Assembly (NCBI GenBank): GCA_041742825.1
Contig: JBGTNX010000075.1
Coordinates: forward strand, 9,960-73,959
Direction: 5' to 3'
Source of the DNA: Acidimicrobiia bacterium
GTDB taxonomy: Bacteria > Actinomycetota > Acidimicrobiia > Spongiisociales > ZC4RG35
Length of the DNA stretch: 64,000 nucleotides
Under the pieces are notes generated by a model. It was given only the letters and a program-made list of their open reading frames with translations. It was not told where the DNA came from and searched no databases. How positions within the stretch are numbered: the first letter of the stretch is position 1; each line of letters starts with the position of its first letter. Shown piece by piece: positions 5-17,223 of this stretch. A program made the position numbers and the translations under genes.

Positions 5-3000
5 ATGAAAGATTCCGCCCCGCCGATTTGGGTGAGTGACATCGAGCGACGCTCGAACCTCACTCGTGCTCAGTACCTGATCTGGAGTGGACAGGAGCTC
101 AATCCTGATACTCCGCTGTACAACATGGCGGTCGCCTTTCACATCCTTGGTGCCGTCGATGTTCCCCGATTCGTCAGCGGATTTGAATCTCTGGTTGCAG
201 GCACAGATGCGATGCGAATGATTTTCGAAAGCGAGAAATCGGTCCCGTTCAGCCGAGTCCTCGAATTTGTGCCGGAGCCAATTTCGGTAGTGGACCTCTC
301 CGCTGAGATCGATCCGGAGCGTGCGGCCCGACAATGGATCGAAACTGACTCCCGGGCGCAGTTCAAACTAGACGAGCAGACCTTCCGGTCAGCCCTCCTC
401 GGGCTCGGAGAGAACCGATTCATCTGGTATCTGAACCAGCATCATCTGACCACCGATGGATGGTCGGTCCAGGTTCTGTACCGCAGGATGGCAGAGATCT
501 ACTCTTCTCCCACCGACGAACGGTCCGAGTATCCGGAGTTCCGGTTTTACACAGAATACGAGCGTTCCTCTCGTGATACCGATGCGTACCGGAACGCAAC
601 CAACCTCTGGGCCGAGAAGACCGCCGAGACACCCACCCCCCTGTCTTTCTACGGCATCGACCCACCGACACGGGCGACTACGAGAACCGACCGGTGGAAA
701 TTGCACCTCGACTTTGAGCGTTCCAATCGGTTGCGCCAACTGGTGGCTAACGACGACAACTCATTGACACCACTTTCGGAGTACGACCTTGCAACAACGT
801 TGTTCCTCGCTTATCTCAGCCGGGCGACCGGGGAAATGTCGTTGTCAATCCTGACCCCGGTACACAACCGTCCATCAAGGCGGCTCAAGAGCACAGCCGG
901 CCTATTCATCGAAGTGCTCCCTTACGCCGTCACACTCGACGCACACGACACTTTTCGCAGCCTGCTGCACAAGGCAACTATTGAGTCTTCTTATGTCCTA
1001 TCGCACACCGTCCCGGGAACAAGCCGCGCGGAGATCAACCGCTCCCGGTCTGTCCTCATCAATTTCATCAATGCCTCCTTGGGCCCCTTCGCAGACTTCG
1101 AGGTGAGAACCGATTGGATCCATCCCGGCCACGGTGATGCGGATCATGCAGTGCGGCTCCAGATACACGACTTTGACGGCACCGGCGAGTACGTCTTCCT
1201 TTTCGACCTCGACGCCGAAATATTCGACGAAAGCCGGGCTCGTCTCCTCCTGGAGCATTTCGAATTGATGCTCGATGCAATGCTCTCCGACTTCGACCAG
1301 CCCATCGCCGGTGTTGACCTCCTCCCACCGCCGCAAGCGGATCAGCTACTGAAACAGTTCAACGACACCGAAGAGCAATGGCATCACAACACGATTCTCG
1401 ATGCGATCAGGGCCCGATCCTCTGCCGACGGTGAGCGAGTCGCAGTAGAAGACGGAGACCGATCGATCACTTATGCAGAATTGGAGCGGGCCAGCGATGG
1501 TCTCGCTGCAGTACTCCGCCAGCGCTGCCGGAAGTCAAAGGTACGAGCGGCGATCTACTTGGATCGATCAGCTGACTACCTCATCGCGGTGCTGGCCACC
1601 CTGAAGACCGGCGGTTCTTACGTTCCCATCGATACAGACACGCCGGCAGAAAGAGTTTCTTACATCGTCGAAGACAGCGGCGCGGACCTGATCATCGCCG
1701 CCAAGAGTCACCATCCCGGCCCGAGCGACCTTCCGGTCATCGACCCGTCGCAACCGGCGATGCCCGAACCATTCTCACATCACGATTTGTCGGCAGTCCC
1801 CTCCGACCCGGCCTACGTGCTGTACACATCTGGCTCAACCGGCCAACCCAAAGGCGTGGTCGTTTCACATCTCGCCCTCGCCAACTATGTGATGTGGGCG
1901 CAAAGGGAGTACGGCGCAGGAGATTCGGTTGATTTTCCCCTCTACTCGTCGGTGGGTTTCGATCTAACGATCACATCGATGTTTGTTCCACTCGTAACCG
2001 GGGGCAGGGTGGTGGTCTACCCCGAAACGGGCGAGGGGGGCCTTGCGATTCGGGAAGTATTCCGCGAGGACAAAGTCGATGTAGTCAAACTGACGCCTTC
2101 TCACCTTTCGGTGCTCTCTCCCAACGATCTGGCTACACAACGTATTCGGAAGCTGATTCTCGGCGGCGAGGATCTTAAAACTGATCTAGCCCGGGCCGTG
2201 GCTTCCGCCGCACCAGGTCTCACCATCTACAACGAATACGGGCCGACCGAGGCGACGGTCGGCTGCATGATCCATCGGTTCGACCCCGAACGAGACAAGG
2301 CCATGTCGGTGCCCATCGGGCGGCCGATCGCCAACAGCAGGGTCTACATTCTGGATCACGATCTGAAACCAACTCCGGTGGGTGTGGTCGGTGAACTGTG
2401 CATCGCGGGGGTTGGTGTCGCAGAGGAATATTTGAATCGTCCAGAATTGACGGCAGAACAGTTTGTCCCCGACCCCCGAGACGAAACCGGGGGACTGTTG
2501 TACCGGACCGGCGATCGAGCCCGTTGGGACACCAATGGTGCCATTCAATTCCTCGGTCGCGCCGACGACCAGGTCAAGATTCGTGGACACCGCATCGAAC
2601 TCGGAGAGATCGAGGCAGTCCTGGTCGGTCACCCTGACATTGGAAGTGTGCTCGTCGATGTGGTGTCAGCCGAGACAACGGTAATGAGCTCGAGGACGGA
2701 CGGCGGCTGTGTTCGGTGTGGTCTATCGAAGAATGCTCCGGGGGGCCATCAGGATGCATCGGGGGTCTGCGCCACCTGTCATTTCTTCGACGAGTTTCGC
2801 CACCATGCCGACGGCTACTTCGGGGATCTATCCGACTTTGCCGAAATTTTCATGGATAAACCCAAGTCACCAGGAGGACAGGATTGTCTGATGCTGCTCA
2901 GTGGTGGCAAAGACAGCACATACGCCCTGTATCAACTCGTCGAGATGGGTCTGCAGCCGTTGGTTTTCACCCTGGACAACGGATTCATCTCCGAGGGCGC

Positions 3001-4261
3001 AAAAGCAAACATGCGCAGGGCATGTGACGACCTCGGCCTCGAGCTGGTTGTGGCTGCAACGCCGGGGATGAATGCAATGTTTGCCGAGAGCCTGTCCACC
3101 TTCAGCAATGTCTGTCAGGGTTGTTTCAAAACGATCTACACGCTTGCCTTGAACCTCGCCGCCGACCGAGGCATCGACACAGTCATCACCGGGCTGTCCC
3201 GCGGCCAGATCTTCGAGACACGCCTCGCGGACCTATTCCGGATCGGGATAACTGATCCATCTGATGTCGACCAAGCCATCATCGAAGCTCGAAAGGCTTA
3301 TCACCGGTCCGGCGGGGTCGCCGCCGAAGTACTTCCGTGCCAGATCTTTGAGACGGAAGACGTATTCGAACGAGTCCGCGTCGTTGACTTTTACCGGTAC
3401 GTCGACGTCGGACTCTCCGAGGTCTATTCCTTTCTGTCCGATCGGGCACCCTGGGTTCGACCATCGGACACGGGCAGGTCGACGAATTGCCTGATAAACG
3501 CTACAGGAATCTTCGTACACAAGACCGAACGGGGATATCACAATTATGCGGTCCCGTACGCATGGGATGTCAGGCTGGGGCACAAGACTCGTGACGCCGC
3601 ACTCGATGAGCTCGACGATGAGATCGACGTCGGTCAGGTCAGGGAGACCCTCGATGAGATTGGCTATCGGATGTCCGATGGCGACGCAGGGATCAACCGG
3701 GGACCAGGACAAAGGCTCGTGGCCTACTACGTCCCCATCGCCGCTCGCCCGACCAAAGGCGAGCTGCGCGCCTTCCTCGCCCATCGCCTCCCGGCCTATA
3801 TGTCGCCTTCCTTTCTCGTCCCGCTCGAGGAAATGCCGCTCACGAGAAATGGAAAAATCGACCGTTCCCGACTTCCCGACCCCAGAGCGCAAGCCACGAG
3901 AAGCACCGGAGAGTTCGCGACCCCGAGAAACGATATCGAGCGAGAACTGGTCGAGATATGGCAGTCGGTGCTCCAGGTCGACGAGATTGGCATCAAAGAC
4001 AATTTCTTCGAGCTCGGGGGCGACTCGATAATCAACGTTCAGATCGTGGCGCGGGCACGAAAGCGCGACATCGTATTTTCTCCTCGCGACCTGTTTGAAC
4101 AGCGAACAATCGCCAATCTGGCTCAAGTCGTCGACACAAAACCCAATTTCGAACAAGAAGGGGTGACAGAATCACCGATCCCGTCGATCGACCCCGGAAT
4201 CAGCGCTGAAGAACTCGCCGGAATTGTCTCACGATACGGCCAGCAAGCTGACGAGAAGTAA
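5..4261 (+). CDS. Single-module non-ribosomal peptide synthetase: C - A (interrupted by a Zn-ribbon/PP-loop ATP-pyrophosphatase-like domain) - T, with no TE/R release domain
   Basis: 1418-aa ORF. C domain has HHLTTDGW (aa 146-153). A-domain cores are LYTSGSTGQPKG (A3), FDLT (A4, Asp retained), NEYGPTE (A5), YRTGD (A7), GRADDQVKIRGHRIELGEIE (A8) and NGKIDR (A10). Carrier motif is FFELGGDS (Ser at aa 1341). About 350 extra aa (888-1235) sit between A8 and A9/A10, with CVRC..CATC and LLSGGKDS. Confidence 0.9.
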   Translation: MKDSAPPIWVSDIERRSNLTRAQYLIWSGQELNPDTPLYNMAVAFHILGAVDVPRFVSGFESLVAGTDAMRMIFESEKSVPFSRVLEFVPEPISVVDLSAEIDPERAARQWIETDSRAQFKLDEQTFRSALLGLGENRFIWYLNQHHLTTDGWSVQVLYRRMAEIYSSPTDERSEYPEFRFYTEYERSSRDTDAYRNATNLWAEKTAETPTPLSFYGIDPPTRATTRTDRWKLHLDFERSNRLRQLVANDDNSLTPLSEYDLATTLFLAYLSRATGEMSLSILTPVHNRPSRRLKSTAGLFIEVLPYAVTLDAHDTFRSLLHKATIESSYVLSHTVPGTSRAEINRSRSVLINFINASLGPFADFEVRTDWIHPGHGDADHAVRLQIHDFDGTGEYVFLFDLDAEIFDESRARLLLEHFELMLDAMLSDFDQPIAGVDLLPPPQADQLLKQFNDTEEQWHHNTILDAIRARSSADGERVAVEDGDRSITYAELERASDGLAAVLRQRCRKSKVRAAIYLDRSADYLIAVLATLKTGGSYVPIDTDTPAERVSYIVEDSGADLIIAAKSHHPGPSDLPVIDPSQPAMPEPFSHHDLSAVPSDPAYVLYTSGSTGQPKGVVVSHLALANYVMWAQREYGAGDSVDFPLYSSVGFDLTITSMFVPLVTGGRVVVYPETGEGGLAIREVFREDKVDVVKLTPSHLSVLSPNDLATQRIRKLILGGEDLKTDLARAVASAAPGLTIYNEYGPTEATVGCMIHRFDPERDKAMSVPIGRPIANSRVYILDHDLKPTPVGVVGELCIAGVGVAEEYLNRPELTAEQFVPDPRDETGGLLYRTGDRARWDTNGAIQFLGRADDQVKIRGHRIELGEIEAVLVGHPDIGSVLVDVVSAETTVMSSRTDGGCVRCGLSKNAPGGHQDASGVCATCHFFDEFRHHADGYFGDLSDFAEIFMDKPKSPGGQDCLMLLSGGKDSTYALYQLVEMGLQPLVFTLDNGFISEGAKANMRRACDDLGLELVVAATPGMNAMFAESLSTFSNVCQGCFKTIYTLALNLAADRGIDTVITGLSRGQIFETRLADLFRIGITDPSDVDQAIIEARKAYHRSGGVAAEVLPCQIFETEDVFERVRVVDFYRYVDVGLSEVYSFLSDRAPWVRPSDTGRSTNCLINATGIFVHKTERGYHNYAVPYAWDVRLGHKTRDAALDELDDEIDVGQVRETLDEIGYRMSDGDAGINRGPGQRLVAYYVPIAARPTKGELRAFLAHRLPAYMSPSFLVPLEEMPLTRNGKIDRSRLPDPRAQATRSTGEFATPRNDIERELVEIWQSVLQVDEIGIKDNFFELGGDSIINVQIVARARKRDIVFSPRDLFEQRTIANLAQVVDTKPNFEQEGVTESPIPSIDPGISAEELAGIVSRYGQQADEK

Positions 4262-4286: not shown

Positions 4287-5894
4287 ATGACGGCCCCAGC
4301 AACAATTCGCACCCAATTGCTTGGTGGAGACTCGCCGCGGGACCTTCTCGCGATCGTCGGGATGTTTGCCCTGTACGCGCTCCTGGACAACGCGACGCGC
4401 GTGCTTTCCGATATGAACGTCGCCTCGCTCGACGATCCCTTTCTCCTCACCGGGGCGATACGATCGAGTCTGATTCCGTTCCTAGCCGCCCTCGTCGGCC
4501 TGGCCTCGGTGACCTGGAGATGGCCCGGTCGAATTTGGGCTCGTTGGACCGCGCTCGACCGAGGCCCGGTGCTGAGGGCCTTGGCGGCGGCTTTCCTGGT
4601 AGTCCTGACGTGGCAAGGTTCTCTATACGAATACAACTACCTTCTGGACCAGGCACACCTTCTCGACCGTCTTGTCCTGGTCGTGCTCGCGGTGGCAAGC
4701 TTCTACCGTCCCGTGTTCTTGAGCTTCTTTGCTTTGCAAAGCCGTGTGATCGCCGGTCAATTCGAGTATCCGTTCGGAACCACGGCTGCCCAAAACATCG
4801 ACGAGCTGCTGGTCATCGCTTTGTTGGCAATCGCTGCAGCGCATCTTCTCTATGTGTTCACAGGTTCCATCGACACATCACCGGTACTGCTGATTCTCAG
4901 CGCCGCCATTGCCACTCACTTCTTTATCCCTGGTAGGTCGAAACTCGCCATTGATTGGCTGAGCACGAACGACATCTCCAACCTTCCTCTCAGCGGATAC
5001 ACCGCGGGATGGCTGGGACAGGGTGACGGCTCCTTCTCGCGACAGATGTCGAATTTCGCATCGAACTTCAACTCACCGCTGCTCGTGGGGACCCTGGCCA
5101 TAGAGTTGGGATCGGTGTTGGCGGCGATGCACTACAAACTCATGCGTTGGTGGCTCCCGATCGCCAGTCTCTTCCACCTCGTTACATTTTTGTATACAGG
5201 GTTCTGGTTCCTCACATGGCTGACTTTCGAGATCGGTCTCTTGATCATTTTCACCCGGCGCAGTCTTCGAGATTGGCTCGACGAAAACTCAACTCCCTTG
5301 CGAGCGGCCATTACGGCAGCTGCGGTGTTGTTCGCAGGCTCATTGCTCTTCCATCCTCCAAAGCTGGCCTGGCTCGACGCTCCCGTTTCCTACGGGTACC
5401 GCATCGAGGCGACCGGGGAGAGCGGAATGCGCTATCAGGTCCCGATCTCGACCTTCTCCCCTGTGGTACAGGAACTCTCGTTCTTCAACCTGAGACTCGA
5501 CACTACCGAGCCGGCCAGCGGCGGGTATGGAGCCGTCGGCTCGCCACAGCGGATACACCAACTGAGCGAAGTGACGACTTTCGCTCAACTCAAGGAGATG
5601 GAGGAGCCGTCCGACCCCGGAGTTCTTCTGCTCTCCCGGAAGTTCATGATGATTTTCATGGATAGGGCAAATGGGGTTGGAGGGACACTTTGGTCGTCGT
5701 TTGCCCCGCCGGATCATTTCTGGACGGGCAACTCACCGCCCAGCTATTCGTTCGACGAGTCGCTTGCCCGACTCGACGTCTTCGTCTTGCGGGCGATCCA
5801 TGATGGCGGCAATCCCCGATTCGAACGGGAACTGGTCCTGACCTTGACCCTCGATGAGGATGGCCATAGCCAGGTCGCCTTTCCTGAAACCTGA
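4287..5894 (+). CDS. Polytopic integral membrane protein of unknown function with a ~190-aa C-terminal soluble domain
   Basis: 535-aa ORF starting 26 nt after the NRPS stop on the same strand. The N-terminal ~340 aa is a series of hydrophobic helices (LLAIVGMFALYALL, LVLVVLAVASFY, LLVIALLAIAAAHLLYVF, WFLTWLTFEIGLLIIF). I recognised no family motif. Confidence 0.6.
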   Translation: MTAPATIRTQLLGGDSPRDLLAIVGMFALYALLDNATRVLSDMNVASLDDPFLLTGAIRSSLIPFLAALVGLASVTWRWPGRIWARWTALDRGPVLRALAAAFLVVLTWQGSLYEYNYLLDQAHLLDRLVLVVLAVASFYRPVFLSFFALQSRVIAGQFEYPFGTTAAQNIDELLVIALLAIAAAHLLYVFTGSIDTSPVLLILSAAIATHFFIPGRSKLAIDWLSTNDISNLPLSGYTAGWLGQGDGSFSRQMSNFASNFNSPLLVGTLAIELGSVLAAMHYKLMRWWLPIASLFHLVTFLYTGFWFLTWLTFEIGLLIIFTRRSLRDWLDENSTPLRAAITAAAVLFAGSLLFHPPKLAWLDAPVSYGYRIEATGESGMRYQVPISTFSPVVQELSFFNLRLDTTEPASGGYGAVGSPQRIHQLSEVTTFAQLKEMEEPSDPGVLLLSRKFMMIFMDRANGVGGTLWSSFAPPDHFWTGNSPPSYSFDESLARLDVFVLRAIHDGGNPRFERELVLTLTLDEDGHSQVAFPET

Positions 5895-6278
5895 TTCGAG
5901 ACGTCGGCCCGTTACACAATCCGAGGTTGCAGGGCGACCTAGAGAGAGTGCCAACCGACAACACAGAGTGACCAAAACCCGGTGCCCGAGGGGTCAAAGT
6001 TCAACCGATGCCAGCGGGTCAATTTTCAGCCGGTGTTGACATCAATTCCTGGATGGCTTTCGGTCACCAAGCCTTCATCGCCATGAGTGTCTCCTGGTGA
6101 TGTGTCAGCCGACCCACTGGGACCGCCAGACCGCACTTTTTTCGCCACACCTGGACCACACTGGTGTCACAAAGGGCACGAAATGGTGCGAAATGACCTA
6201 ACCAACGAGAGAAATCCAAAGGATTCCCTGGGCCGGGTTTCCTCAGGTCAGATGGCCAAAACTCCTGCTCGGAGTCGG

Positions 6279-6351
6279 AGCCGGGTACCGGATTTGAACC
6301 GATGACCTGCTGATTACAAATCAGCTGCTCTACCAACTGAGCTAACCCGGC
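6279..6351 (-). tRNA. tRNA-Thr (anticodon TGT)
   Basis: Minus-strand read GCCGGGT-TA-GCTC-AGTTGGTA-GAGC-A-GCTGA-TTTGTAA-TCAGC-AGGTC-ATCGG-TTCAAAT-CCGGT-ACCCGGC-T folds as a cloverleaf. The anticodon loop is TT[TGT]AA. CCA is not encoded. Confidence 0.92.
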
Positions 6352-12137: not shown

Positions 12138-13115
12138 GTGGCGGTACGCAGATGTAAACAGTGCGACGCGAGCGTCGCTGCAGACGAGCAGTTCTGCCCT
12201 AATTGTGGTGCCTTCATGGACCCTCTGGGCCAGCAGACCCATGGCAACATCATTTCGGTCAGCTCCAGCGGCTTTGAGACGTTTCAGCTCAGCGAGCCTC
12301 CCGAAGAACCAAAGCGTCGCCCCGAGCGCGGCTCCACCGGCGGCCCCGGGAACTCGATCCAATGCCCCTCCTGCGGTGCGACCAACCCTTCGTCGAACCG
12401 TCACTGTGAGGAATGTGGTGCCCGACTCAGCCAGGCGCCCCTCCCCACCGCCCCGCGTCCCGCGGTCCAGGCGACCGCTGGTGTCCGCGCCGCCCTTGCG
12501 ATCAGTGGCCTCCTCTTCGGCGTTGTTGTAGTTGCACTCGCCTTCAACGTGCTCGGTGGCGAGGAAACCCCGACGTCGACAACCGTCGCCGCTACTTCAA
12601 CCACTGCCCCGACCGTGGAAGAGAACGGGCCGATTCCCGTCATCAGCGAATCTTGCTCCGTCGAAGGCATCTCGTCGTTCGTCTGCGCCAACCTCACCTC
12701 GGGCACCGAGGACTCCTACCAGGTCAATTGGGAGGAGCTTCAGGCCGAAGCCGGGATCATCACGATCCGGCTCACCTTCGACCAGCCGATGGTGGTCCAG
12801 CAGATATTGTGGAGGAACCTCGCGGACCCGGTCCGATTCCAGCAGAACTACCGGCCCCGAGGGCTCGTCGTCACCGCCTCCGACGCCATCTCCGACGTGG
12901 CACACGAGTTGGAGGATGTTCCCGGTGAGCAGGTGATCCCTTACGCTGCGGTCGGCGCCAACTGGATCGAGTTCGAGATCACCAGCGCCTGGGTGGCGAC
13001 AGTCACCGAAGGCAACGTGTTCAAAGAGATGGCAATCGACGAGATAACAATCATCGGCCGCCCCCAGGCGGCTGCCACCAACACCACAGCCACCACCTCG
13101 ACGACTGCTCCCTAG
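12138..13115 (+). CDS. Double zinc-ribbon, single-pass membrane protein with a discoidin-like extracellular domain
   Basis: GTG start preceded by AAGGAGG. Contains CKQCD..CPNCG and CPSCG..CEECG ribbons, TM segment ALAISGLLFGVVVVALAF, a Thr/Ser-rich linker and a C-terminal beta-rich domain. Confidence 0.6.
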   Translation: MAVRRCKQCDASVAADEQFCPNCGAFMDPLGQQTHGNIISVSSSGFETFQLSEPPEEPKRRPERGSTGGPGNSIQCPSCGATNPSSNRHCEECGARLSQAPLPTAPRPAVQATAGVRAALAISGLLFGVVVVALAFNVLGGEETPTSTTVAATSTTAPTVEENGPIPVISESCSVEGISSFVCANLTSGTEDSYQVNWEELQAEAGIITIRLTFDQPMVVQQILWRNLADPVRFQQNYRPRGLVVTASDAISDVAHELEDVPGEQVIPYAAVGANWIEFEITSAWVATVTEGNVFKEMAIDEITIIGRPQAAATNTTATTSTTAP

Positions 13116-13134
13116 GGCGCGACCTCCGAAGGCT

Positions 13135-14427
13135 CTACTGCTTGATATACGGTTGCCCGTCAGCGGCCGGCGCCCGGGCATGGCCGACGAGACCGGCGAC
13201 CACGATGACCGTGGCAACGTACGGCAGCATCAGCATGAACTCCGAAGGTATCCCAGTGCCGAGGATGCCGACCTTCTGGGCTAGCGCACCTGAGAACCCG
13301 AAGACCAGTCCCGCGGCGAGGGCGCCAAAGGGAAGCCATCTCCCGAAGATCATTGCGGCGAGGCCGATGAACCCGATGCCACCCGTCATGTTTTCCTCGA
13401 ACCTGGAGATCTGCGCCAGAGCGAGGAATGCTCCACCGAAGCCGGCAATCAGACCGGCACCGATCACATTGCGATATCGCACTTTGAGGACATCGATGCC
13501 CAGTGTGTCGGCTGCCTTCGGGTGCTCCCCGACAGCCCTGGCGCGCAGGCCCCAACGGGTCCTGAAGAATCCGATGTGGAGCGCGACAACGAGGATGAAG
13601 GTCACGTACACGAAAAACGTGTGATCGAAGAACATCGGCCCAATCACCGGTATGTCCGCAAGCAGGGGGATCCGGATCGAGGTGACCCGGGCCGGAGCGT
13701 TGAGGTCCTGGGCTTCGGCGAGGACACGGCTCGCCAGGAAGGAAGTCAGGCCCACGGCGAGGATGTTGATGACGACTCCGGCAATGATTTGATCCACGCT
13801 GAACCTGATCGCAAGCCAGGCGAGGAGGGCGCCGAGCAGTGCGCCAACCAGCATCGCACCCGCCACCCCGGCCCAGGTTCCGAAGGCGCTGGACAGGATC
13901 ACAGCGACAAAGGCACCGGTCAGCAGTTGGCCCTCGATGCCGATGTTGATGACTCCGGCGCGCTCACATGTGAGTCCGGTCAGGGCGCCGAGGGTGATGA
14001 CGATCGAGGAGATGACAGTCGATCGCAGCATCCCGACCAGGCTGAACGAGCTGTCCGCGGCTGCCCATGCCAGCAATGCAAGTACGAACAGAAGTAGGCC
14101 GATGCCGAGTGCGAGATTGGTCCGTTTCAGATTCCGGCGACGGAGACGATCGGCGCCGAGGGCAAATATGAGCACCCCGGCCACCGCTGAGAAGATGCGA
14201 GAATTGAACGTCCACGCGACTCCCTGGATGGAGTCGGTAGGCAGGCTCATATTGAACGTGGAAGAGGCGTCCGGGGGCACTCCGAAGGCGAAAATTCCCA
14301 TGACGACCGCGGCGAGTGCCATGAGGACGACACCGATGATCGTTGCTCTCCGCTCCTCGGCACTGGTCCGCAGCACTACCTCCGGCGTGGTGGTGTCCAC
14401 CTTGTCCATCACAGTCATGATCCCCAC
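13135..14427 (-). CDS. ABC transporter permease (BMP/nucleoside-type simple-sugar family)
   Basis: 430-aa polytopic ORF in an operon with a second permease, a duplicated ATPase and a BMP lipoprotein. Contains a GIEGQLL-type motif. Confidence 0.85.
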   Translation of the reverse strand: MGIMTVMDKVDTTTPEVVLRTSAEERRATIIGVVLMALAAVVMGIFAFGVPPDASSTFNMSLPTDSIQGVAWTFNSRIFSAVAGVLIFALGADRLRRRNLKRTNLALGIGLLLFVLALLAWAAADSSFSLVGMLRSTVISSIVITLGALTGLTCERAGVINIGIEGQLLTGAFVAVILSSAFGTWAGVAGAMLVGALLGALLAWLAIRFSVDQIIAGVVINILAVGLTSFLASRVLAEAQDLNAPARVTSIRIPLLADIPVIGPMFFDHTFFVYVTFILVVALHIGFFRTRWGLRARAVGEHPKAADTLGIDVLKVRYRNVIGAGLIAGFGGAFLALAQISRFEENMTGGIGFIGLAAMIFGRWLPFGALAAGLVFGFSGALAQKVGILGTGIPSEFMLMLPYVATVIVVAGLVGHARAPAADGQPYIKQ

Positions 14428-15626
14428 CCCGTGGTCAGCTGGGTCGGCTTCTCATCGGGGCCTTTGACCCGATAGATCGTCCGGATCATTCCCGGTGCAG
14501 CTACGAAGATCACGATCAGCGCTTGGAGAACGACCACGAGATCGATCGGCACCTGGGCCGCACCCTGCATCTCCCTACCGCCTGCGGCAAGCGCACCGAA
14601 CAACAGCGAGGCCCAGAGCACCCCGATCGGATTGGAGCGTCCGAGGAGGGCAACAGTTATGGCGTCGAAGCCCACGGCACCGGCGAGCGCAGGAGATGCT
14701 TTGTACGGCTCGAGTCCCATCACCTGGTTGGCACCTGCCATCCCGGCGAGACCGCCGGCGAGGGCCATCGCCAGAGTCACCACGACTGCAACATTCATGC
14801 CGGCATAACGTCCGGCACTCGGGTTGGAGCCAACCGCCCGGAACTCGAAGCCGATTGAGGAACGATAGAGAAGCCAGTGGACGACGAAAACGAAGGCAAT
14901 CGCGATCAGAAGCCCGATTGTCACCCGGTAGTCGGCCCCGAAGAGGCGGGGCAGGCGAGCCGTCTCCGCTAGCTCTGCTGACACTGGATTATTGCGTCCC
15001 GGGTCCTGGAGCCCGGGCGTGGTCAGGATCCACTGCATGAAGAACACCGCGATGAAGTTGCCCATGATGGTGGTAATGACCTCGTGGGCCCCAGTCCGCG
15101 CTTTCAGTAGCCCCGCCAGCCCACCCCAGATCATCCCACCGGCGAGCCCCGCCAACAGTGTCAACGGGATGTGGACGATCCCGGGAAGGCTCACGTAAAT
15201 TCCGACATAGGTTGCCGCCAGACCTCCCATCAGCATCTGGCCCTGCGCCCCGATGTTGAACAGCCCGGCACGGAAGCCCAAGGCGACGCCGAGGCCGGCG
15301 AGGATCAGCGGGGTGGCAGCAAACAGGGACTCCGAGAGGGCATTCACCGACCCGACAGAACCCCGGAAGAGCGCCCGGTAAGCTGCGCTCACCTCGGCCA
15401 CCATCTGCCCGAATGCAGCACCGGGGTCGTCGAACAACAGTCTCAGGATCTCGATATCGGAGAAGGCGATGATGAACGCCCCGATTATCAAGGCGGTAAC
15501 CACTGCCAACGTGGGCAGGAGCAGCGATCGGGCTACCGAAGTGCCAATCCCGGTGGCACGGTCCATCAGCGGACTGCGCTCCGGGGGAGGCGTTGCCTCG
15601 CTCTCAGGTGCACGGGTGTCGGTCAC
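14415..15626 (-). CDS. ABC transporter permease (BMP/nucleoside-type)
   Basis: 403-aa polytopic ORF with NIGAQGQMLMG. Overlaps both the upstream and downstream operon genes. Confidence 0.85.
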   Translation of the reverse strand: MTDTRAPESEATPPPERSPLMDRATGIGTSVARSLLLPTLAVVTALIIGAFIIAFSDIEILRLLFDDPGAAFGQMVAEVSAAYRALFRGSVGSVNALSESLFAATPLILAGLGVALGFRAGLFNIGAQGQMLMGGLAATYVGIYVSLPGIVHIPLTLLAGLAGGMIWGGLAGLLKARTGAHEVITTIMGNFIAVFFMQWILTTPGLQDPGRNNPVSAELAETARLPRLFGADYRVTIGLLIAIAFVFVVHWLLYRSSIGFEFRAVGSNPSAGRYAGMNVAVVVTLAMALAGGLAGMAGANQVMGLEPYKASPALAGAVGFDAITVALLGRSNPIGVLWASLLFGALAAGGREMQGAAQVPIDLVVVLQALIVIFVAAPGMIRTIYRVKGPDEKPTQLTTGWGS

Positions 15627-17155
15627 GGAGCCGAACCGAGCATTGCCAGGCCAATGTCAGTAACTTCGGCATCGGGCGCGAACTCACCTGCGACCTTGCC
15701 GTGGAAGAGCACGATGATCCGGTCGGCGAGTGCCCTGACCTCGTCTAACTCAGACGACACCACCAGGACTGCTGCCCCGGCATCGCGTTTTGCGACTATC
15801 TGACTGTGGATGTACTCGATGGAGCCGACATCGATGCCCCGGGTCGGTTGGGCGGCGATCACCAACTCCACCTCCCGGGCGAACTCGCGGGCGACGATGA
15901 CTTTCTGCTGGTTTCCTCCGGAGAGCGTCGATACAGGGACGTCGATGCCGGGGGTGCGCACGTCGTACTGCTTGACCAGGTCTTTGGCCATCTCCCGGGT
16001 TGCGCCCCAGTCCATGACCACGCCTCTCGAGAACGGCTGCTCGTAGTAGGAATCGAGGATCATGTTCTCGACAACGCTGAAATCCAGGACCAGGCCGCTC
16101 TCCTGGCGGTCTTCGGGGATATGGGAAACTCCCAGCTGGTGGAGATCACGGGGATTGGCGTCCGTTATGTCGGTGTGGCCTAACCGCACCGAACCGGACA
16201 TCACCGGGCGGAGTCCCGTGATTCCTTCGATCAGCTCAGTTTGGCCGTTGCCCTGAACCCCGGCGATTCCCACGATCTCACCGGCGTGAACGTCGAAGCT
16301 GACGCCGTCCACCGCCTTCACATTTCTGCTGTCGAGCACGACCAAGTCCCGGACCTCCAGCACCAGCTCGCCCGGAGAGGCCGTGGCCTTGGTTACGGTC
16401 AGATCGACCGACCGCCCGACCATGAGATTGGCCAAGTCTTGCTGGGTGGTCTCGGCGGGGAGTGCCTCACCCACCACCTTCCCGCCCCGCATCACGACGA
16501 TCCGATCCGCGACCCTGATTGCTTCACCCAGCTTGTGGGTGATGAACACGATCCCCTTGCCATCAGCCTTGAGGCCCTCGACTATCCCGAAGAACTCCTC
16601 GACCTCCTGGGGCGTCAGTACCGCTGTCGGTTCGTCGAAGACGACGAACTGCGCTTCGCGGTCCAAGACCTTGATGATCTCAACTCGCTGCTGGACACCC
16701 ACGGAGATGTTCTCGATCAACGCATCAGGATCGACTCTGAGGTTGTACCGCTCGGAGATATTCATCACCGTGGCGCGGGCGGCGTCGCGGTCGATCATGC
16801 CCCCGAACCCGGTCGGCTCCTGGCCCAGGACCACATTTTCAGTCACTGTGAAGACGGGGACGAGCATGAAATGTTGGTGAACCATCCCGATTCCGGCGGC
16901 AATGGCGTCGGCCGATGAGCCAAGGGACATTTCCTCGCCGTCGATGACGATCTTGCCTTTGTCCGCCGAGTAGAGGCCGTAGAGGATGTTCATCAGGGTG
17001 CTCTTGCCGGCTCCGTTCTCCCCGAGCAGGGCAACGACCTCACCAGGAGCAACCGAAAGGGACACATCGTCATTGGCCAGGACACCACCAGGAAAGCGCT
17101 TGGTAATCCCTTCCAGAACAAGTGCCAAACCGTCTCCTTCCCAGCTGATCCGCAC
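15623..17155 (-). CDS. ABC transporter ATP-binding protein with two fused ATPase domains
   Basis: Walker A GENGAGKST, Walker B VVFDEPT, signature LSGGNQQK and a degenerate second P-loop GVQGNGQTE, as is typical of sugar/nucleoside importers. Confidence 0.9.
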   Translation of the reverse strand: MRISWEGDGLALVLEGITKRFPGGVLANDDVSLSVAPGEVVALLGENGAGKSTLMNILYGLYSADKGKIVIDGEEMSLGSSADAIAAGIGMVHQHFMLVPVFTVTENVVLGQEPTGFGGMIDRDAARATVMNISERYNLRVDPDALIENISVGVQQRVEIIKVLDREAQFVVFDEPTAVLTPQEVEEFFGIVEGLKADGKGIVFITHKLGEAIRVADRIVVMRGGKVVGEALPAETTQQDLANLMVGRSVDLTVTKATASPGELVLEVRDLVVLDSRNVKAVDGVSFDVHAGEIVGIAGVQGNGQTELIEGITGLRPVMSGSVRLGHTDITDANPRDLHQLGVSHIPEDRQESGLVLDFSVVENMILDSYYEQPFSRGVVMDWGATREMAKDLVKQYDVRTPGIDVPVSTLSGGNQQKVIVAREFAREVELVIAAQPTRGIDVGSIEYIHSQIVAKRDAGAAVLVVSSELDEVRALADRIIVLFHGKVAGEFAPDAEVTDIGLAMLGSAP

Positions 17156-17223
17156 GATACCTTAGAACGGCCGGAGCCCCAGCGTGTGCTGGGGCTCCGG
17201 TGCGTTCCGATATTGTTTGTCGA

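Follow-up and report, generated by a model that had tools for sequence, protein, structure and literature searches.

What is an ATP-pyrophosphatase domain doing within the adenylation domain of a peptide synthetase? The question is raised by the first gene in a stretch of 64,000 nucleotides (nt) from an Acidimicrobiia bacterium (GenBank assembly GCA_041742825.1, contig JBGTNX010000075.1, positions 9,960 to 73,959 of the forward strand), here termed the window. This gene (window positions 5..4261, + strand) encodes a nonribosomal peptide synthetase (NRPS) of 1418 amino acids (aa), for which the translation of the open reading frame (ORF) and matches to Pfam and NCBIfam give the layout C-A(N-terminal part)-insert-A(C-terminal part)-T, with condensation (C), adenylation (A) and thiolation or carrier (T) domains. 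The comparisons described below make it likely that the insert is an AMDH domain, of the family that also comprises the inserts of CysH and AlbIV, and that the A domain hosting it activates asparagine (Asn).

A first-pass annotation of the window, made from the sequence alone, had called attention to some 350 extra residues between the A8 core and the A9/A10 region of this A domain, and the description holds; every motif that it listed was located in the translation. Core A8, GRADDQVKIRGHRIELGEIE, occupies aa 851-870, A9 (LPAYMSPSF) aa 1262-1270 and A10 (NGKIDR) aa 1282-1287, which bears out the a8-a9 site as the point of insertion; the ~350 residues (nt ~2657-3712) lie inside the small A subdomain, which they interrupt. 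Likewise the C-A-T layout that had been proposed is recovered by Pfam as successive Condensation, AMP-binding, AMP-binding_C and PP-binding matches. The condensation domain (aa 17-449, 53..1351; PF00668, E 1.2e-50) has the active-site motif HHLTTDG at aa 146-152, and is followed by the large subdomain of the A domain through core A8 (aa 473-884, 1421..2656; PF00501 at 473-810, TIGR01733 at 489-884). After the insert (aa ~888-1235, 2666..3709) comes the rest of the small A subdomain (aa 1237-1287, 3713..3865; PF13193 at 1234-1284), comprising the strand RLVAYYVP, A9 and A10, and then the T domain (aa 1314-1375, 3944..4129; PF00550, E 4.2e-14), whose phosphopantetheine serine, S1341, lies within FFELGGDS (nt 4025-4027). 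All of these features are on the + strand. The gene begins 4 nt from the left edge of the window, which shows none of its upstream side.

An acidic tail of ~45 aa containing 'ISAEELAGIVSRYG' follows the T domain (window positions 4130-4258); in the alignment many homologues end in similar tails of the form 'S(D/A)EE(A/L)'. The tail may serve as a docking helix, its partner being a synthetase whose gene lies elsewhere.

For comparison, 80 related loci were fetched from other genomes (L001-L080), and residue conservation was counted in 71 of them. Along the insert (all on the + strand) there are, in order, a zinc ribbon of the form CVRC-x16-CATC (CVRC at aa 902-905, CATC at aa 922-925), with cysteines C902, C905, C922 and C925 (2708..2779); the segment LMLLSGGKDSTYALYQL (aa 962-978), spanning the PP-loop SGGKDS (aa 966-971, 2900..2917), which is the ATP alpha-beta pyrophosphatase signature; the segment LVFTLDNGFISE (aa 986-997); the pair C1037-x2-C1040 (CQGC, aa 1037-1040, 3113..3124); and C1162 (3488..3490) in the motif GRSTNC. 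The PP-loop, the GRSTNC motif and all seven of these cysteines, the four of the zinc ribbon together with C1037, C1040 and C1162, are invariant in 71/71 loci. The last three are also kept in the AMDH domain of CysH, with which the insert was aligned.

The route to that domain was the substrate specificity of the host. The code of the A domain, read by hand in the window gene and then by alignment in the 71 loci, is DLTKIGEVG(K), of the asparagine type, and the pattern DLTK[IV]GE[VI][GA] is found in 71/71 related loci. A full-text search for the code string led to the literature on albicidin and cystobactamid. A survey of 2025 gives DLTKIGEVGK as an Asn code that is also used at the beta-cyano-alanine position of albicidin (PMC12283262). 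An insert of ~342 aa in AlbIV, from the albicidin pathway of Xanthomonas albilineans, is attributed to Cociancich et al. (2015) in the papers that cite that work (PMC12283262, PMC7966384), and the homologous insert of CysH, from the cystobactamid pathway of Cystobacter velatus, was named AMDH by Groß et al. (Nat Commun 2021; PMC7966384). When read by hand, the N-terminal A-domain sequences of AlbIV and CysH both give the code of the window gene, DLTKIGEVG. In a BLASTP comparison with the CysH AMDH domain (sequence taken from the source data of PMC7966384), the insert shows 46% identity and 64% positives over 327 aa (E 8e-112).

The CysH domain has been characterised experimentally. CysH loads L-Asn onto its T domain and then undergoes a loss of 18 Da that indicates beta-cyano-L-alanine, a step that CysH without the AMDH domain does not carry out; the domain also isomerises T-bound Asn to isoasparagine (isoAsn), and prior beta-hydroxylation by CysJ steers it toward isomerisation. 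Deleting the domain in a heterologous producer abolished all isoAsn and cyano-alanine linkers. The same study reported SGGKD as AMDH core motif 1 and mentioned numerous homologues, all of those found by BLAST being predicted to lie in Asn-specific A domains (PMC7966384).

CysH and the window gene thus have in common the A8-A9 insertion site, an A domain for Asn with one and the same code (DLTKIGEVGK), and the SGGKDS, zinc-ribbon, NVCxGCFK, GRSTNC and PY(S/A)WDVR motifs. They differ in their surroundings: CysH is a free-standing A(AMDH)-T protein whose product is shuttled by CysB into an assembly line for para-aminobenzoic acid (PABA) units and tailored by CysJ and CysQ, whereas the window module has a C domain fused at its N terminus, and its relatives are accompanied by a pyrrole starter cassette and a histidine module. 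AlbIV, so far as the citing papers describe it, also has an Asn-code A domain split by an insert of the adenine nucleotide alpha-hydrolase type with SGGKD, proposed to make beta-cyano-L-alanine in situ; it differs in lacking a C domain and in belonging to a PABA-type gyrase-inhibitor pathway. Its insert was compared with ours by description, the alignment being with CysH.

These properties (homology to CysH, the A8-A9 site, the Asn code and SGGKD) are those of the AMDH family, and on them we base the assignment given at the outset. The window does not hold a cluster of the cystobactamid or albicidin type, since the C domain is fused and the CysB, CysJ and CysQ partners and the PABA machinery are absent within the window. 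The first-pass annotation had known of no characterised PP-loop insert of this kind; that there is none is an error, as the AlbIV insert had been described and the CysH AMDH domain had been studied both by reconstitution in vitro and by deletion in vivo (PMC7966384). Nor is the architecture new, because it is already tied to two products, albicidin and cystobactamid. As for interrupted A domains in general, a 2015 review by Labby and colleagues reportedly covers methyltransferase, ketoreductase and monooxygenase inserts. These resemble the present case in that a tailoring domain is nested at a8-a9 and acts on the substrate of the neighbouring T domain; they differ in being enzymes dependent on S-adenosylmethionine, NAD(P)H or flavin, where the window insert is a PP-loop ATP pyrophosphatase.

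If the insert works as its CysH homologue does, the module would operate as follows. The A domain would adenylate L-Asn and load it onto the adjacent T domain, as the code DLTKIGEVGK predicts and as CysH has been shown to do. The AMDH domain would then act in cis on the tethered Asn, using a second ATP at SGGKDS and adenylating the side-chain carboxamide oxygen; departure of AMP together with loss of an N-H proton would leave a nitrile, as beta-cyano-L-alanyl-S-T. The dehydration itself has been shown for CysH; its adenylation mechanism is suggested by PP-loop chemistry, in particular by the amide-to-nitrile step of QueC. Alternatively, the tethered Asn would be converted to isoasparaginyl-S-T, which has also been shown for CysH, and dehydration and isomerisation by the window domain are not told apart by its sequence. 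At the alpha-amine the C domain would attach an acyl or peptidyl group supplied from upstream, the donor in the related loci being very probably pyrrole-2-carboxyl-S-PCP (PCP, peptidyl carrier protein) from a PltF/PltL/PigA-like cassette. Action in cis on a carrier-tethered amino acid had been foreseen by the first-pass annotation, and the analogy with CysH supports it; the amidination, amidation or thiolation that it had predicted is not what the CysH homologue does, which is to make beta-cyano-alanine or isoAsn.

Several points weigh against so direct a transfer of function. Identity to CysH is 46%, which leaves room for a shifted outcome, be it either of the known reactions or a third. Unlike CysH and AlbIV, the module carries a C domain of its own and sits in a different type of cluster, such that homology fixes neither the timing of condensation nor the product. 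No CysJ-like hydroxylase or CysQ-like O-methyltransferase, the enzymes that direct AMDH to isomerisation in the cystobactamid pathway, was found beside the gene within the window. Finally, the adenylation-elimination mechanism is inferred for CysH as well.

To what wider family does the insert belong? When the whole protein was scanned, Pfam and NCBIfam placed no standard domain at aa ~885-1233. The insert excised from the protein does match TIGR03573 (WbuX N-acetyl sugar amidotransferase; NASAT), with E 3.7e-24 and 85.8 bits across profile positions 4-325 of 344, and this match falls, as had been anticipated, between the AMP-binding (473-810) and AMP-binding_C (1234-1284) matches. An AlphaFold2 (AF2) model of the insert, built on 26 sequences, has a predicted local distance difference test score (pLDDT) of 85 and a predicted TM score (pTM) of 0.85. 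Its best Foldseek match is LpNASAT (8wex; E 4.5e-10, TM 0.54, identity 16-18%), followed by TtuA, YcfA, asparagine synthetase, TilS and the [4Fe-4S] LarE. A profile of 11 insert sequences searched against the PDB matched LarE 8cnz (E 2e-8) and 8wex (E 9e-8), and also GMP synthase; QueC (2pg3) was a weak match to the same profile (E 0.0076), and precomputed matches to PF06508, the QueC family, are present on many AMDH homologues. QueC is 7-cyano-7-deazaguanine synthase, a PP-loop enzyme that drives a carboxamide intermediate to a nitrile with ATP. It differs from the insert in acting on a free small molecule, in having its zinc site at the C terminus and in not being embedded in an NRPS, and is only distantly related to it.

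Profile and model together identify the insert as a PP-loop ATP pyrophosphatase that has a zinc ribbon at its N terminus and is nearest to the NASAT group. The zinc ribbon plus PP-loop (adenine nucleotide alpha-hydrolase) domain and the kinship with WbuX and WbpG suggested by the first-pass annotation are both upheld by TIGR03573 and 8wex. In the NASATs (WbuX, WbpG, LfnA, PseA), as in the insert, a tetracysteine zinc ribbon is followed by SGGKDS on a Rossmann-like fold; in LpNASAT (structure 8WEX) cysteines C44, C47, C79 and C82, upstream of the PP-loop 122-SGGKDS-127, bind zinc (PMC10607449). The NASATs are, however, stand-alone enzymes of lipopolysaccharide and glycan pathways that make acetamidino groups, with a substrate and an outcome unlike those of AMDH, and the insert sits inside an NRPS, as do its counterparts in all the fetched loci. 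Because 85.8 bits falls below the curated NCBIfam cutoff of 203.2, the insert lies outside the WbuX/NASAT family proper, as a superfamily relative and not a member.

This bears directly on a first alternative, that the insert is an amidotransferase of the WbpG/LfnA/PseA kind, in which a carbonyl (that of an N-acyl amide or of the Asn side chain) is adenylated and its oxygen replaced by ammonia, to give an amidine or amide. The best curated-family match and the best structural match both point this way, as does the shared layout of zinc ribbon and PP-loop. Set against them, the family score lies far under its cutoff and identity to 8wex is only 16-18%, while the much closer CysH homologue yields the -18 Da nitrile and isoAsn, not an amidine. 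Among the recurring neighbour families of the 80 loci there is no glutaminase and no ammonia-donor family like HisH/HisF, and the CXXC-C cysteines of the insert (C1037, C1040 and, as candidate third, C1162) are not among the metal ligands reported for LpNASAT (PMC10607449). We regard an amidotransferase as very improbable. More generally, the products of both characterised pathways speak against amidination or thiolation, and neither is the best prediction for the insert, because its CysH homologue gives dehydration or isomerisation of Asn.

The cysteines of the insert fall into two sets. In the alignments C902, C905, C922 and C925 fall where LpNASAT has its zinc tetracysteine, ahead of the PP-loop, and would bind a structural zinc as that tetracysteine does. 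C1037 and C1040 align residue for residue with two other CxxC pairs, C128 and C131 of Pyrococcus horikoshii TtuA and that of the [4Fe-4S] LarE 8cnz (MmLarE); with C1162 as a candidate third ligand they form a CXXC-C motif. The combination of SGGXDS and CXXC-C is the recognised mark of PP-loop enzymes in which three cysteines bind a [4Fe-4S] cluster (PMC9283937). We suggest that a metal centre, which may be a [4Fe-4S] cluster, is probably bound by the CXXC-C cysteines of the insert. Purified CysH was dark brown, and a CxxCxxxC motif was sought by Groß et al. and found to be absent (PMC7966384); if AMDH does hold such a cofactor, it would have gone unrecognised in that study because CxxCxxxC was the motif sought. 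That AMDH has an Fe-S or Fe site on three cysteines is a reasonable hypothesis, since CXXC-C is invariant and aligned with TtuA and LarE, its signature is known, and the brown colour of CysH is left unexplained.

Does the insert, then, also share the chemistry of these enzymes? TtuA/Ncs6 and LarE, the former named in the first-pass annotation for their similar layout, have a PP-loop, CXXC-C and a similar fold, and they follow a logic of adenylation and then substitution; their sequence similarity to the insert is marginal, and they act on tRNA or a pyridinium nucleotide, into which they insert sulfur. A second alternative is that the insert is a sulfur insertase of this type, with a non-core sulfide on a tri-cysteine [4Fe-4S] cluster replacing the adenylated oxygen; the product would be a thioamide (thio-asparagine or in the backbone), a soft metal ligand. 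In addition to the invariant signature and the aligned CxxC, the presence of TtuA, YcfA and LarE among the top Foldseek matches, the dark brown colour of CysH and the HupE/UreJ and TonB-receptor genes in related clusters would suit such an enzyme. Although the insert has both SGGXDS and CXXC-C, as [4Fe-4S] sulfur insertases do, its family-level scores are marginal, at 17.8 bits for TtuA (NCBIfam cutoff 450) and 16.6 bits for ThiI (Pfam cutoff 20.5), with Dph6 likewise only a marginal match. The third ligand, C1162, is a candidate drawn from conservation. The known pathway products show no sulfur addition: the linkers of cystobactamid and albicidin are nitrile, Asn or isoAsn and not thioamide, and CysH in vitro gives -18 Da (PMC7966384). 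We therefore limit the kinship of the insert to TtuA and LarE to the level of fold and motif, and consider a sulfur insertase very improbable. An AMDH domain acting on Asn, with the tri-cysteine site as a putative feature of it, is the reading retained in what follows.

How widespread are such domains? A pattern scan with one genome per species gave at least 539 confirmed loci, in groups that include Acidimicrobiia, Alpha- and Gammaproteobacteria, Gemmatimonadota, Chloroflexota, Acidobacteriota, Cyanobacteria, Planctomycetota, Bacteroidota, Desulfobacterota and Verrucomicrobiota; the domain is present in >500 species genomes and over a dozen phyla, and the mean column identity of the insert across phyla is 65%. 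When 1.84 billion cluster representatives (50% identity) were searched exhaustively with HMMER, 569 matched at E <= 1e-30. The best 150 of the 569 are all insert-bearing multidomain proteins of NRPS length, mostly 1400-3100 aa, some being shorter and apparently truncated. In the full-length C-A-T genes of related loci the PP-loop lies 940-1060 aa from the N terminus. This spread agrees with, and extends, the remark of 2021 on numerous homologs (PMC7966384). Homologue fragments of <=630 aa had suggested a split 'AMDH-Asub-T' protein, which was rejected on finding that their N termini lie inside A domains and that the exhaustive search gives full-length NRPSs.

The same data dispose of a third alternative, in which the insert is a relic without activity or serves purely as a structural spacer, or the ORF is an artefact of assembly or frameshift. 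It was raised only on account of the position at the window edge and the lower-G+C stretch in which the gene lies, and we found no support for it. The frame of 1418 codons at 5..4261 is unbroken, with all NRPS core motifs in order, and an identical 1418-aa product is present in the protein collection. A chimera or frameshift, which the first-pass annotation had raised as a concern, is ruled out by the same order of parts in 78/80 loci from other genomes, where the insert lies about 960-1000 aa from the N terminus, and in the best 150 of the 569 representatives. The catalytic-looking residues are all invariant, and the invariance of SGGKDS and the seven cysteines in 71 loci indicates purifying selection on the insert. 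Conservation in practice refutes this alternative, to which we assign a negligible probability.

What do the AMDH genes make? The closest relatives of the window NRPS are in metagenome-assembled genomes of Acidimicrobiia. The first-pass annotation had held it plausible that the C domain releases the product onto a free amine; the closest relatives continue into further NRPS modules. Upstream neighbours were counted in the 48 related loci with >=6 kb of upstream sequence. The commonest is a HupE_UreJ_2 membrane protein (33/48), followed by a free-standing A protein (30/48), an acyl-CoA-dehydrogenase-like protein (26/48) and an ornithine cyclodeaminase-like protein (OCD; 13/48); a carrier protein of ~95 aa is often directly upstream of the AMDH gene. 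The free-standing A protein has as its best single-domain PDB match PltF, the L-prolyl-carrier-protein ligase (E 3e-93), and for the dehydrogenase the highest scores are those of PigA (401 bits) and the L-prolyl-PCP dehydrogenase RedW (367 bits), well above those of other acyl-CoA dehydrogenases. Judged by these matches, such proteins together are very probably the classical cassette that converts proline to pyrrole-2-carboxyl-S-PCP. In the closest locus, L001, the A and PCP genes are immediately upstream of the C-A(AMDH)-T gene.

Downstream, the module after AMDH has the code DSALIAEVW or a variant with one residue changed (position 3 or 5) in 40 loci; DSALIAEVWK is a histidine (His) code (PMC12283262). 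TonB-dependent receptors, classical HupE/UreJ permeases, ABC exporters, glycosyltransferases and sulfotransferases also recur. From these gene contents the family looks like one that makes pyrrolyl-Asn*-His(-...) peptides and carries metal-transport genes. A literature search for the product of a pyrrole/AMDH/HupE type of cluster found none.

One may speculate that the pyrrole nitrogen, two backbone amide nitrogens and the His imidazole form a four-nitrogen chelate like the amino-terminal copper- and nickel-binding (ATCUN) motif, and, equally speculatively, that the nitrile, isoAsn or other group made by the AMDH domain would tune or complete the ligand set. That both parts of such a picture hold, AMDH domains being tri-cysteine [4Fe-4S] or Fe PP-loop enzymes and the orphan cluster family making a small Ni-, Co- or Cu-binding metallophore, seems to us improbable.

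Some features of the related loci may be recorded here. Cultured bacteria with a complete cluster include Tropicimonas sediminicola DSM 29339 (L045) and Adonisia turfae CCMR0081 (L043). The HupE_UreJ_2 neighbour is ~400-430 aa long, with a PF13795 domain at the C terminus and an extracytoplasmic N-terminal part; some Chloroflexota loci have a classical HupE/UreJ protein of 197 aa in its place, and five loci of Acidobacteriota and Bacteroidota add a TonB-dependent receptor. In L008 the module downstream of the AMDH gene consists of three ORFs (12807-15725, 15722-16513 and 16510-17187), and likewise in L012, L016, L018, L019, L054 and L063. The ORFs are in different frames, tightly coupled by ATGA-type overlaps or by gaps of <30 nt. 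They encode a C domain with the A core to A8, a methyltransferase-like protein of 263 aa, and a protein starting just before the A9 strand and continuing through A10, T and C. The arrangement resembles an A domain broken at the same a8/a9 site whose tailoring enzyme has a gene of its own.

The window itself shows little of this context. The pyrrole cassette (A, PCP, PigA-like dehydrogenase, OCD and HupE_UreJ_2) was sought by tblastn over the 64-kb window, and only the A domain of the NRPS itself was found; the cassette thus either lies before nt 1 or is lacking in this case. On the other side, 25 nt downstream of the NRPS gene, lies a gene for a polytopic membrane protein of 535 aa (4287..5894, + strand) with a beta-rich C-terminal domain. 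Pfam and NCBIfam scans of this protein gave no match, and its 62 homologues are all named hypothetical. An AF2 model (pLDDT 94) had no significant fold match in the PDB, the best being the vitamin-K gamma-carboxylase GGCX (E 0.14, TM 0.28). Homologues adjoin AMDH-NRPS genes in 11 other loci, and the protein is probably part of the same cluster as the NRPS.

Beyond the membrane-protein gene are convergent housekeeping genes, for a SpoU methylase, cysS, ispF, carD, disA and radA, in an actinobacterial arrangement. The first 6 kb, with the NRPS and membrane-protein genes, has 57-58% G+C, vs 60-67% in the other 58 kb, which is consistent with the two genes being a horizontally acquired island. An ORF of 89 aa at 6064-6333 (- strand) had no match in a family search. 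A protein of 325 aa (12138-13115, + strand), adjoining radA and two genes for branched-chain amino-acid permeases, has two N-terminal zinc-ribbon or double-zinc-ribbon matches (PF13248, PF12773, PF13240) and no other recognised domain.

AMDH-interrupted Asn modules were already known from two clinically relevant gyrase-inhibitor pathways. What is added here is the set of seven invariant cysteines, including CXXC-C, the size and spread of the family, and the common context of pyrrole cassette, His module and HupE or TonB genes. The alignment of CXXC-C with the Fe-S ligands of TtuA and LarE, together with the link to the NASAT fold, leads to concrete hypotheses on the cofactor and active site of AMDH. 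For annotation pipelines, such inserts are better labelled AMDH (Asn to cyano-alanine or isoAsn) than 'amidotransferase' or 'QueC'. The AMDH domain marks a very large orphan family of gene clusters, of which the window gene is an orphan member, and, since a pyrrolyl-Asn*-His core keeps recurring alongside genes for metal transport, marine and soil bacteria may possess a widespread, undescribed class of metallophores.

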